Assembly (NCBI RefSeq): GCF_900289195.1
Contig: NZ_OMOH01000001.1
Coordinates: 116,705 to 148,704, forward strand
DNA length: 32,000 bases
From: Propionibacterium ruminifibrarum
Lineage (GTDB): Bacteria > Actinomycetota > Actinomycetes > Propionibacteriales > Propionibacteriaceae
Direction: 5' to 3'
Shown one piece after another: positions 23,308-23,484 of the stretch. Position numbers and translations under genes: made by a program. Numbering within the stretch: position 1 is the stretch's first letter; every line of letters starts with the position of its first letter. Under the pieces are notes generated by a model, which did no database searches, was not told the DNA's origin, and worked only from the letters and a program-made list of their open reading frames with translations.

Positions 23308-23484
23308 ATGGAGGTCTTGCGCGTCTTCAACAACAATGTGGTCCTGGCGCGCGACGAGCTGGGCCGTGAGGTGGTCGTCACTGGGCGTGGTGTCGGGTTC
23401 AAGAAGAAATCCGGCGACCCCGTCGACCCCGCACTGACCGTCACAGGACAGAACACCACGCAGGAAAGGACCACCACAGCATGA
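23308..23484 (+). CDS. stand-alone CAT (co-antiterminator RNA-binding) domain protein, BglG/LicT/SacY N-terminal domain only, 58 aa
   Basis: Not in the ORF track. My translation: [58 protein letters not shown]. It aligns with LicT MKIAKVINNNVISVVNEQGKELVVMGRGLAFQKKSGDDVDE (NNNV and GRG.GF.KK.GD motifs). In-frame stop at 23254-23256 and no earlier start codon. Its stop overlaps the bglA ATG (ATGA at 23481-23484). Confidence 0.7.

Follow-up and report, generated by a model that had tools for sequence, protein, structure and literature searches.

The DNA examined in this work is a 32,000-nt stretch of the Propionibacterium ruminifibrarum genome (GCF_900289195.1, NZ_OMOH01000001.1, positions 116,705-148,704, forward strand), referred to below as the window, and positions are given in its own numbering unless a contig is named. 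The sequence and the ORF list of the window contain an ATG-started open reading frame of 58 codons on the plus strand at 23308-23484, with the translation that a first-pass annotation of this DNA had given for it. Its stop codon, TGA (23482-23484), overlaps the ATG of bglA (23481) in the arrangement ATGA, and the bglA Shine-Dalgarno sequence, AGGAAAGG (23462-23469), lies within its tail; both features had been read correctly in that annotation. In public databases the product is recorded as SPF67112.1 / WP_220474275.1, under the name 'CAT RNA binding domain-containing protein [Propionibacterium ruminifibrarum]'. The ORF is preceded by the native cbiX-licT intergenic region (23029-23307, plus strand; 279 nt, with 1 mismatch against two contigs that carry a full operon, L093 and L096), which presumably holds the licT promoter. 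The -10-like hexamer TATCCT does occupy 23294-23299, 8 nt 5′ of the ATG, as first described; a sigma-70 consensus scan of the upstream region (23029-23307) returned no promoter match, and a leaderless start of the transcript is something that we only infer.

The gene that follows, bglA (23481-24908, plus strand), is an intact gene for a GH1 6-phospho-beta-glucosidase of 475 aa, which matches Pfam Glyco_hydro_1 over nearly its full length (E=2.8e-133). In the window it has no promoter-like site of its own, no RAT/terminator leader and no EII partner. Beyond it, a GC-rich inverted repeat with 15-bp arms, GGCGCCGTGGCCCGG ... CCGGGCCACGGCGCC (24990-25029, not assigned to a strand), was recognised from the sequence and from an inverted blastn match against the sister species P. 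australiense, in which it is conserved. It lies where bglA and rpmG converge and is probably a terminator that serves both directions. Three ribosomal protein genes occupy the region 25046-25766, two of them on the minus strand (rpmG, 57 aa and free of Cys, and rpmB, 78 aa) and one on the plus strand (a type-B rpmE2 of 79 aa, also free of Cys); a MerR/TipAS regulator comes after them. The three appear to form a group of ribosomal protein paralogues that do without zinc, a class that is often Zur-regulated in actinobacteria. Our search of the literature on P. ruminifibrarum found no description of a beta-glucoside phenotype.

An incomplete CAT domain

The first-pass annotation had aligned the 58-residue peptide with the N-terminal CAT domain of the BglG/LicT/SacY antiterminators and proposed a Pfam search as a check. 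This search yielded a significant match to CAT_RBD (PF03123; E=3.1e-17, 62.7 bits, against a cut-off of 25 bits), and the best matches among PDB sequences were the LicT-CAT domain (1l1c, E=4.8e-10) and SacY (1auu). The homology to LicT and SacY is thus real, and it ends early: the match spans model positions 1-42 of 57 only, the LicT and SacY alignments likewise cover residues 1-42, and residues 43-58 are not CAT sequence at all and derive from the C-terminus of an EII protein. The domain is therefore incomplete. In the LicT-CAT/RAT structure the N-terminal 41 residues presumably bear many of the side chains that contact the RNA.

The CAT domain has been described as a four-stranded sheet of 55 aa, in which hydrogen bonds between the beta-4 strands close the dimer (2025 review of these antiterminators, PMC12591593). 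The peptide in the window has no beta-4 and so falls short of a complete four-strand domain of about 55 aa. A single-sequence AF2 model, which at its low confidence (mean pLDDT 61) lends weak support only, has strands at residues 2-7, 11-15 and 21-25 and nowhere else, with block-mean pLDDT values of 48-54 from residue 31 on.

When full-length LicT and EII proteins were compared with the 32-kb window by tblastn, only 23308-23436 was matched. No PRD1 or PRD2 follows the CAT fragment, since the ORF ends at residue 58 and the search found no PRD in the window; nor did it find a partner PTS EII there, save for a 17-codon tail. The absence of PRD and EII genes from the window, on which the first-pass annotation had remarked, is borne out by this search.

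The full operon in other P. ruminifibrarum strains

We initially compared the locus with 80 GTDB loci that encode BglA relatives of 65-81% identity. These are arranged as licT-EII-bglA or EII-bglA-licT and are too divergent to show where the tail came from; looking up exact proteins supplied the decisive loci. A look-up of the exact BglA protein of the window in public assemblies gave 13 contigs. Ten distinct other contigs encode a 100%-identical BglA, including MAG contigs from GCA_015062705.1 (L093) and GCA_040307615.1 (L091) together with JGI and ENA metagenome contigs, and in all ten an EII gene lies directly upstream of bglA. Full-length licT is visible in six of them, namely those that extend far enough upstream, a RAT in three (L093, L095, L096) and cbiX in two (L093, L096).

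In these strains the order is cbiX on the minus strand, licT, a promoter-like site, RAT and terminator, the PTS EIIBCA gene and bglA. The conspecific LicT has 284 aa, with CAT_RBD and PRD domains, and the EIIBCA protein 641 aa, with PTS_EIIB, EIIC and EIIA_1 domains. L093 and L096 share both flanks with the window, namely FecCD, an ABC transporter and cbiX (minus strand) on the 5′ side and rpmG, rpmB, rpmE2, merR/TipAS and DUF418 on the 3′ side, and the spacer between cbiX and licT is 279 nt in all three sequences. The comparison of the cbiX-bglA interval that had been suggested at the outset therefore places a full-length licT, with its RAT/terminator and EIIBCA gene, at this very position in conspecifics with an identical BglA, which bears out the idea, also raised in the first-pass annotation, that the ORF is the stump of a deleted licT.

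The deletion junction

Against L093, megablast aligned window 21000-23432 with contig positions 4689-7121 (99.06% identity, ungapped) and window 23424-26000 with 9944-12522 (99.7%), so that flanks with 99.1-99.7% identity to full-operon contigs lie on both sides of a clean gap of 2,831 bp. The two segments overlap by exactly 9 nt. This overlap is the junction (23424-23432, plus strand), a single remaining copy of the 9-bp direct repeat CGACCCCGC, which is found at both parental sites in L093: within licT at 7113-7121 (codons 39-42) and within the EII gene at 9944-9952, 17 codons before the end of the gene. On its 5′ side lies sequence aligned to licT alone (23308-23423, plus strand), that is codons 1-39, which take in the first three CAT beta-strands and some of the loop between beta3 and beta4; on its 3′ side, sequence aligned to the 3′ end of the EIIBCA gene alone (23433-23484, plus strand), comprising the last 16 codons and the stop and carrying the bglA Shine-Dalgarno sequence AGGAAAGG and the ATGA overlap.

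At the protein level, residues 1-42 of the stump match the N-terminal end of the L093 LicT (284 aa) without a difference, and residues 40-58 are likewise identical to the C-terminus of the EII of that contig. The ORF list, the CAT_RBD match and the comparison with L093 thus agree on a chimeric 58-codon ORF (23308-23484, plus strand) whose product joins residues 1-41 of LicT, in frame, to the 17 C-terminal residues of EII. The full-length gene in relatives, the collinear flanks and the single gap identify the stump as a gene remnant, and the short direct repeat at both breakpoints points to a known deletion mechanism. Loss of the sequence between two short direct repeats is what replication slippage or illegitimate recombination typically produces.

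The start of bglA in L093 (10001) precedes the end of the EII gene (10004), which makes the ATGA overlap ancestral, and the 75 nt before bglA, from the repeat onward, are identical save for 1 base in all ten full-operon contigs. The clean translational coupling had been put forward as an argument for function. As both the coupling and the Shine-Dalgarno sequence are the ancestral EII-bglA junction, inherited unchanged, they carry no weight for function, and the argument falls.

What the deletion removed

Three parts of the operon were lost: the stretch of licT that codes for CAT beta-4 and both PRDs (codons 43-284), the spacer of 227 nt between licT and the EII gene, and EII codons 1 to about 624. 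In L093 the spacer contains a canonical RAT, GGATTGTTACCCGTCAGGGGCAAGACC (7962-7994), the 3′ half of which sits in a hairpin (-43.9 kcal/mol) followed by U6, with z=-5.05. Just upstream of the RAT, at L093 7911-7939, we observed a promoter-like site, TTGCCA-17-TATCCT, the second hexamer of which is the same TATCCT that precedes the ATG of the stump and of licT; from this site, EII-bglA in the full operon seems to have a promoter of its own.

Because Rfam, at gathering thresholds, returned no match in the window, a dedicated RAT covariance model (R1) was built and trained on 34 RATs of related loci. It scored 42.2 bits in L093, L095 and L096 and 33-39 bits at loci outside the training set (L001, L002, L004, L006). 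In the 32-kb window it found no RAT, the best score being 7.6 bits (E=5.4) with filters off. A scan for RAT elements, which the first-pass annotation had proposed for the whole genome, was in this way positive for three full operons and blank for the window, and within the window searched the stump has neither a RAT target of its own nor an EII sensor.

A second carrier of the deletion

The same junction was found in a contig from another sample (L082, run SRR30827662), with the order cbiX-stump-bglA and a BglA of 99% identity. In this contig the stump has suffered a 2-bp deletion at codons 8-9 that leaves an ORF of 19 codons, which stops 115 nt before bglA. Between the window and L082, the proportion of substituted positions is 3.5% in the stump and 3.6% in the cbiX-licT spacer, compared with 2.1% in cbiX and 1.3% in bglA. 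As far as 6 substitutions and one indel against one other carrier can tell, the stump thus appears to behave like non-coding DNA.

The deletion allele is therefore present on two diverged backgrounds, those of the window and L082, and 10 of the 12 contig sources keep the full operon. Together with the mosaic distribution of single-nucleotide polymorphisms (SNPs), the two backgrounds indicate that the deletion is natural and arose neither in culture nor in assembly. The allele has thus persisted or spread in nature, leaving room for a selective benefit.

Two further observations concern its history. The base that follows the junction repeat (window 23433) is A in both deletion carriers, and in all ten full-operon contigs the base after the licT copy of the repeat (L093 7122) is T and that after the EII copy (L093 9953) is C. 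In a three-way comparison the SNP pattern is mosaic: in bglA the window agrees with L093 at 18 sites and with L082 at 1, and cbiX is mixed. The shared A and the mosaic SNPs suggest either that the deletion allele arose once and strains afterwards recombined homologously, or that the deletion happened more than once.

Two dN/dS values were considered as signs of selection and set aside. That of bglA between the window and L082 (0.15) was rejected as a mark of selection after the deletion because the SNPs are mosaic and bglA of the window is identical to full-operon alleles, so that the divergence does not postdate the deletion; that of the stump against P. australiense licT (0.15) goes back to a period in which licT was still complete. 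A homology search also gave six further short proteins with CAT_RBD (47-92 aa), which we considered as a possible conserved family of short forms and rejected as such: five lie on contigs of only 640-1,464 bp, and the sixth, from an 18-kb contig, carries a partial flag. Several extend into the beta-4 region and a linker (...RRFVP...), and some then end in junk.

Origin and fate of the ORF

Taken together, we consider the 58-codon ORF to be the deletion scar of a licT-EII locus and not a new minimal regulator, with a probability of roughly 0.95, and none of the evidence speaks against such an origin. The sequence of events would have been as follows. Slippage or illegitimate recombination between the two 9-bp copies of CGACCCCGC, one at licT codons 39-42 and the other near the end of the EII gene, would have removed the 2,831 bp between them; the licT frame would thereby have been shifted onto the EII frame, giving the in-frame LicT(1-41)-EII(last 17) chimera, which would have inherited the EII-bglA overlap together with the ribosome-binding site of bglA. 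As a consequence, bglA would now be transcribed only from the licT promoter and without antitermination control. The stump may well be translated, given its start codon, the possible -10 hexamer and the intact coupling to bglA. The 58-aa peptide is most likely non-functional; if made, it would be inactive because no dimer can form through beta-4 and no target exists in cis.

A variant of this account accepts the same deletion and regards it as adaptive. By this reasoning the loss of the RAT/terminator, the sensor EII and the PRDs lets the licT promoter drive bglA constitutively, the chimeric ORF acts as a translated leader that feeds ribosomes to bglA through the ATGA, and substrates enter by other PTS transporters. 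It gains some credit from the fact that bglA is intact in both carriers, with the sole indel located in the stump, that the allele occurs in two independent samples on diverged backgrounds, and that the terminator that would block read-through is gone. The leader ORF of L082, however, ends after 19 codons and 115 nt short of bglA, so that coupling is not maintained; the promoter-like site before the RAT was deleted as well; the full operon is kept in 10 of 12 contig sources; and bglA of the window lies within 0-1 nt of full-operon alleles (L096 and L093), with no signal of selection after the deletion. We therefore regard adaptive deletion as unlikely, if still the strongest of the alternatives.

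Much less probable is a role for the peptide in trans, in which the translated chimera would act on RAT-like RNAs elsewhere in the genome or, as a modulator independent of the PTS, would associate with other antiterminators of the BglG family, the deletion having perhaps been selected for uncoupling bglA from antitermination.

The reading favoured in the first-pass annotation, in which the ORF encodes a truly minimal antiterminator, CAT-only and independent of the PTS, with RAT RNA as its ligand, does not survive the comparison, and we think it slightly less probable again; as far as the analysis reaches, it turned up what that annotation had itself named as grounds for refutation. The CAT_RBD match is significant, a start codon and a possible promoter are in place, and the engineered domains SacY(1-55) and LicT-CAT show constitutive activity. 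The peptide has, however, no more than 41-42 of the roughly 55 CAT residues, the domain being cut before beta-4 and this strand replaced by an unrelated EII tail; the window contains no RAT, the cognate one having been deleted; the ORF is frameshifted in L082 and evolves like intergenic DNA; and the short CAT_RBD matches form no conserved short family. Finally, an artefact in the assembly or cultivation of the type strain, which might be suspected because the deletion occurs only in type-strain data (the window, L081 and L094) and in one other contig, is negligible as an explanation, given the same junction in the independent run SRR30827662 with flanks that diverge by 1.3-3.6%, the agreement of two type-strain assemblies (an NCBI contig of 447,974 bp and a Logan contig of 93,406 bp) and a lost segment that is unique sequence and not a collapsed repeat.

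Having weighed these alternatives, we return to the deletion scar and to what it means. The beta-glucoside (licT-EII-bglA) operon is polymorphic within P. ruminifibrarum, and at this locus the type strain is without regulator, transporter and RAT switch, which is relevant to its carbohydrate phenotype and to its annotation as the reference for the species. The case is also a caution that a small ORF with a strong Pfam match, a good start context and textbook coupling can be the by-product of a deletion, and a pseudogene or remnant flag would be preferable to the present name, 'CAT RNA binding domain-containing protein'.

Relatives and known systems

In the sister species P. australiense (L083, LR134442.1, 5232-10900) a licT-RAT-EII-bglA operon lies beside the same rpmG-rpmB-rpmE2-merR block. 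Here licT is intact (286 aa) and the RAT/terminator is located at 6530-6608; the EII gene is frameshifted in its EIIB part, with a start at 6648 and a called gene only from 6992, and bglA is split into pieces of 187 aa and 299 aa by an insertion sequence (DDE_Tnp_1, 9085-9849, minus strand). This operon is a case of independent decay of licT-EII-bglA. A segment of the window 55-105 nt upstream of the stump (23203-23253) matches L083 1-52 with 85% identity, 5.2 kb upstream of P. australiense licT, and P. australiense seems to carry, between licT and the cbiX side, a cluster of roughly 5 kb (gntR, sugar-acid kinase, gntP) that P. ruminifibrarum lacks.

More distant actinobacteria have the order licT-RAT-EII-bglA or EII-bglA-licT. 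At a locus of Microbacterium sp. bgisy203 (L017, 7423-7983) a truncated licT of 186 aa, with CAT and part of PRD1 followed by junk that contains an ACGCAC-type short repeat, directly precedes bglA, and no EII and no RAT match were found at that locus. In Actinomyces dentalis (L003, about 7900-8001) uvrC is followed directly by bglA, with neither licT nor EII, and the order in A. haliotis (L004) is uvrC-licT-EII-bglA. The Microbacterium and A. dentalis loci are independent losses, and they make the disappearance of regulator and transporter beside a kept bglA a recurrent and ordinary event.

Compared with the BglG/LicT/SacY antiterminators, which combine CAT_RBD (PF03123) with two PRDs (PF00874), residues 1-41 of the stump are the true N-terminus of such a protein, and yet the peptide fails on every architectural point that marks the family, lacking CAT beta-4, PRD1, PRD2, a RAT/terminator target and an EII partner. 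The engineered isolated CAT domains SacY(1-55) and LicT-CAT (PDB 1auu and 1l1c) are constitutively active in antitermination, and the stump resembles these constructs in being short, in having no PRDs and in its N-terminal sequence; unlike the stump, however, they keep all four strands (55 aa) and dimerise via beta-4. Decayed or cryptic bgl operons and the remnants of deletions between direct repeats are known kinds of locus, and the stump shares with them its direct-repeat boundaries and the existence of the full operon in conspecific strains. An in-frame remnant left by a direct-repeat deletion in a dispensable sugar operon is thus of a well-known kind, and what sets this one apart from known deletion remnants is a single curiosity, namely an in-frame fusion that preserves an annotated ORF with a Pfam match.
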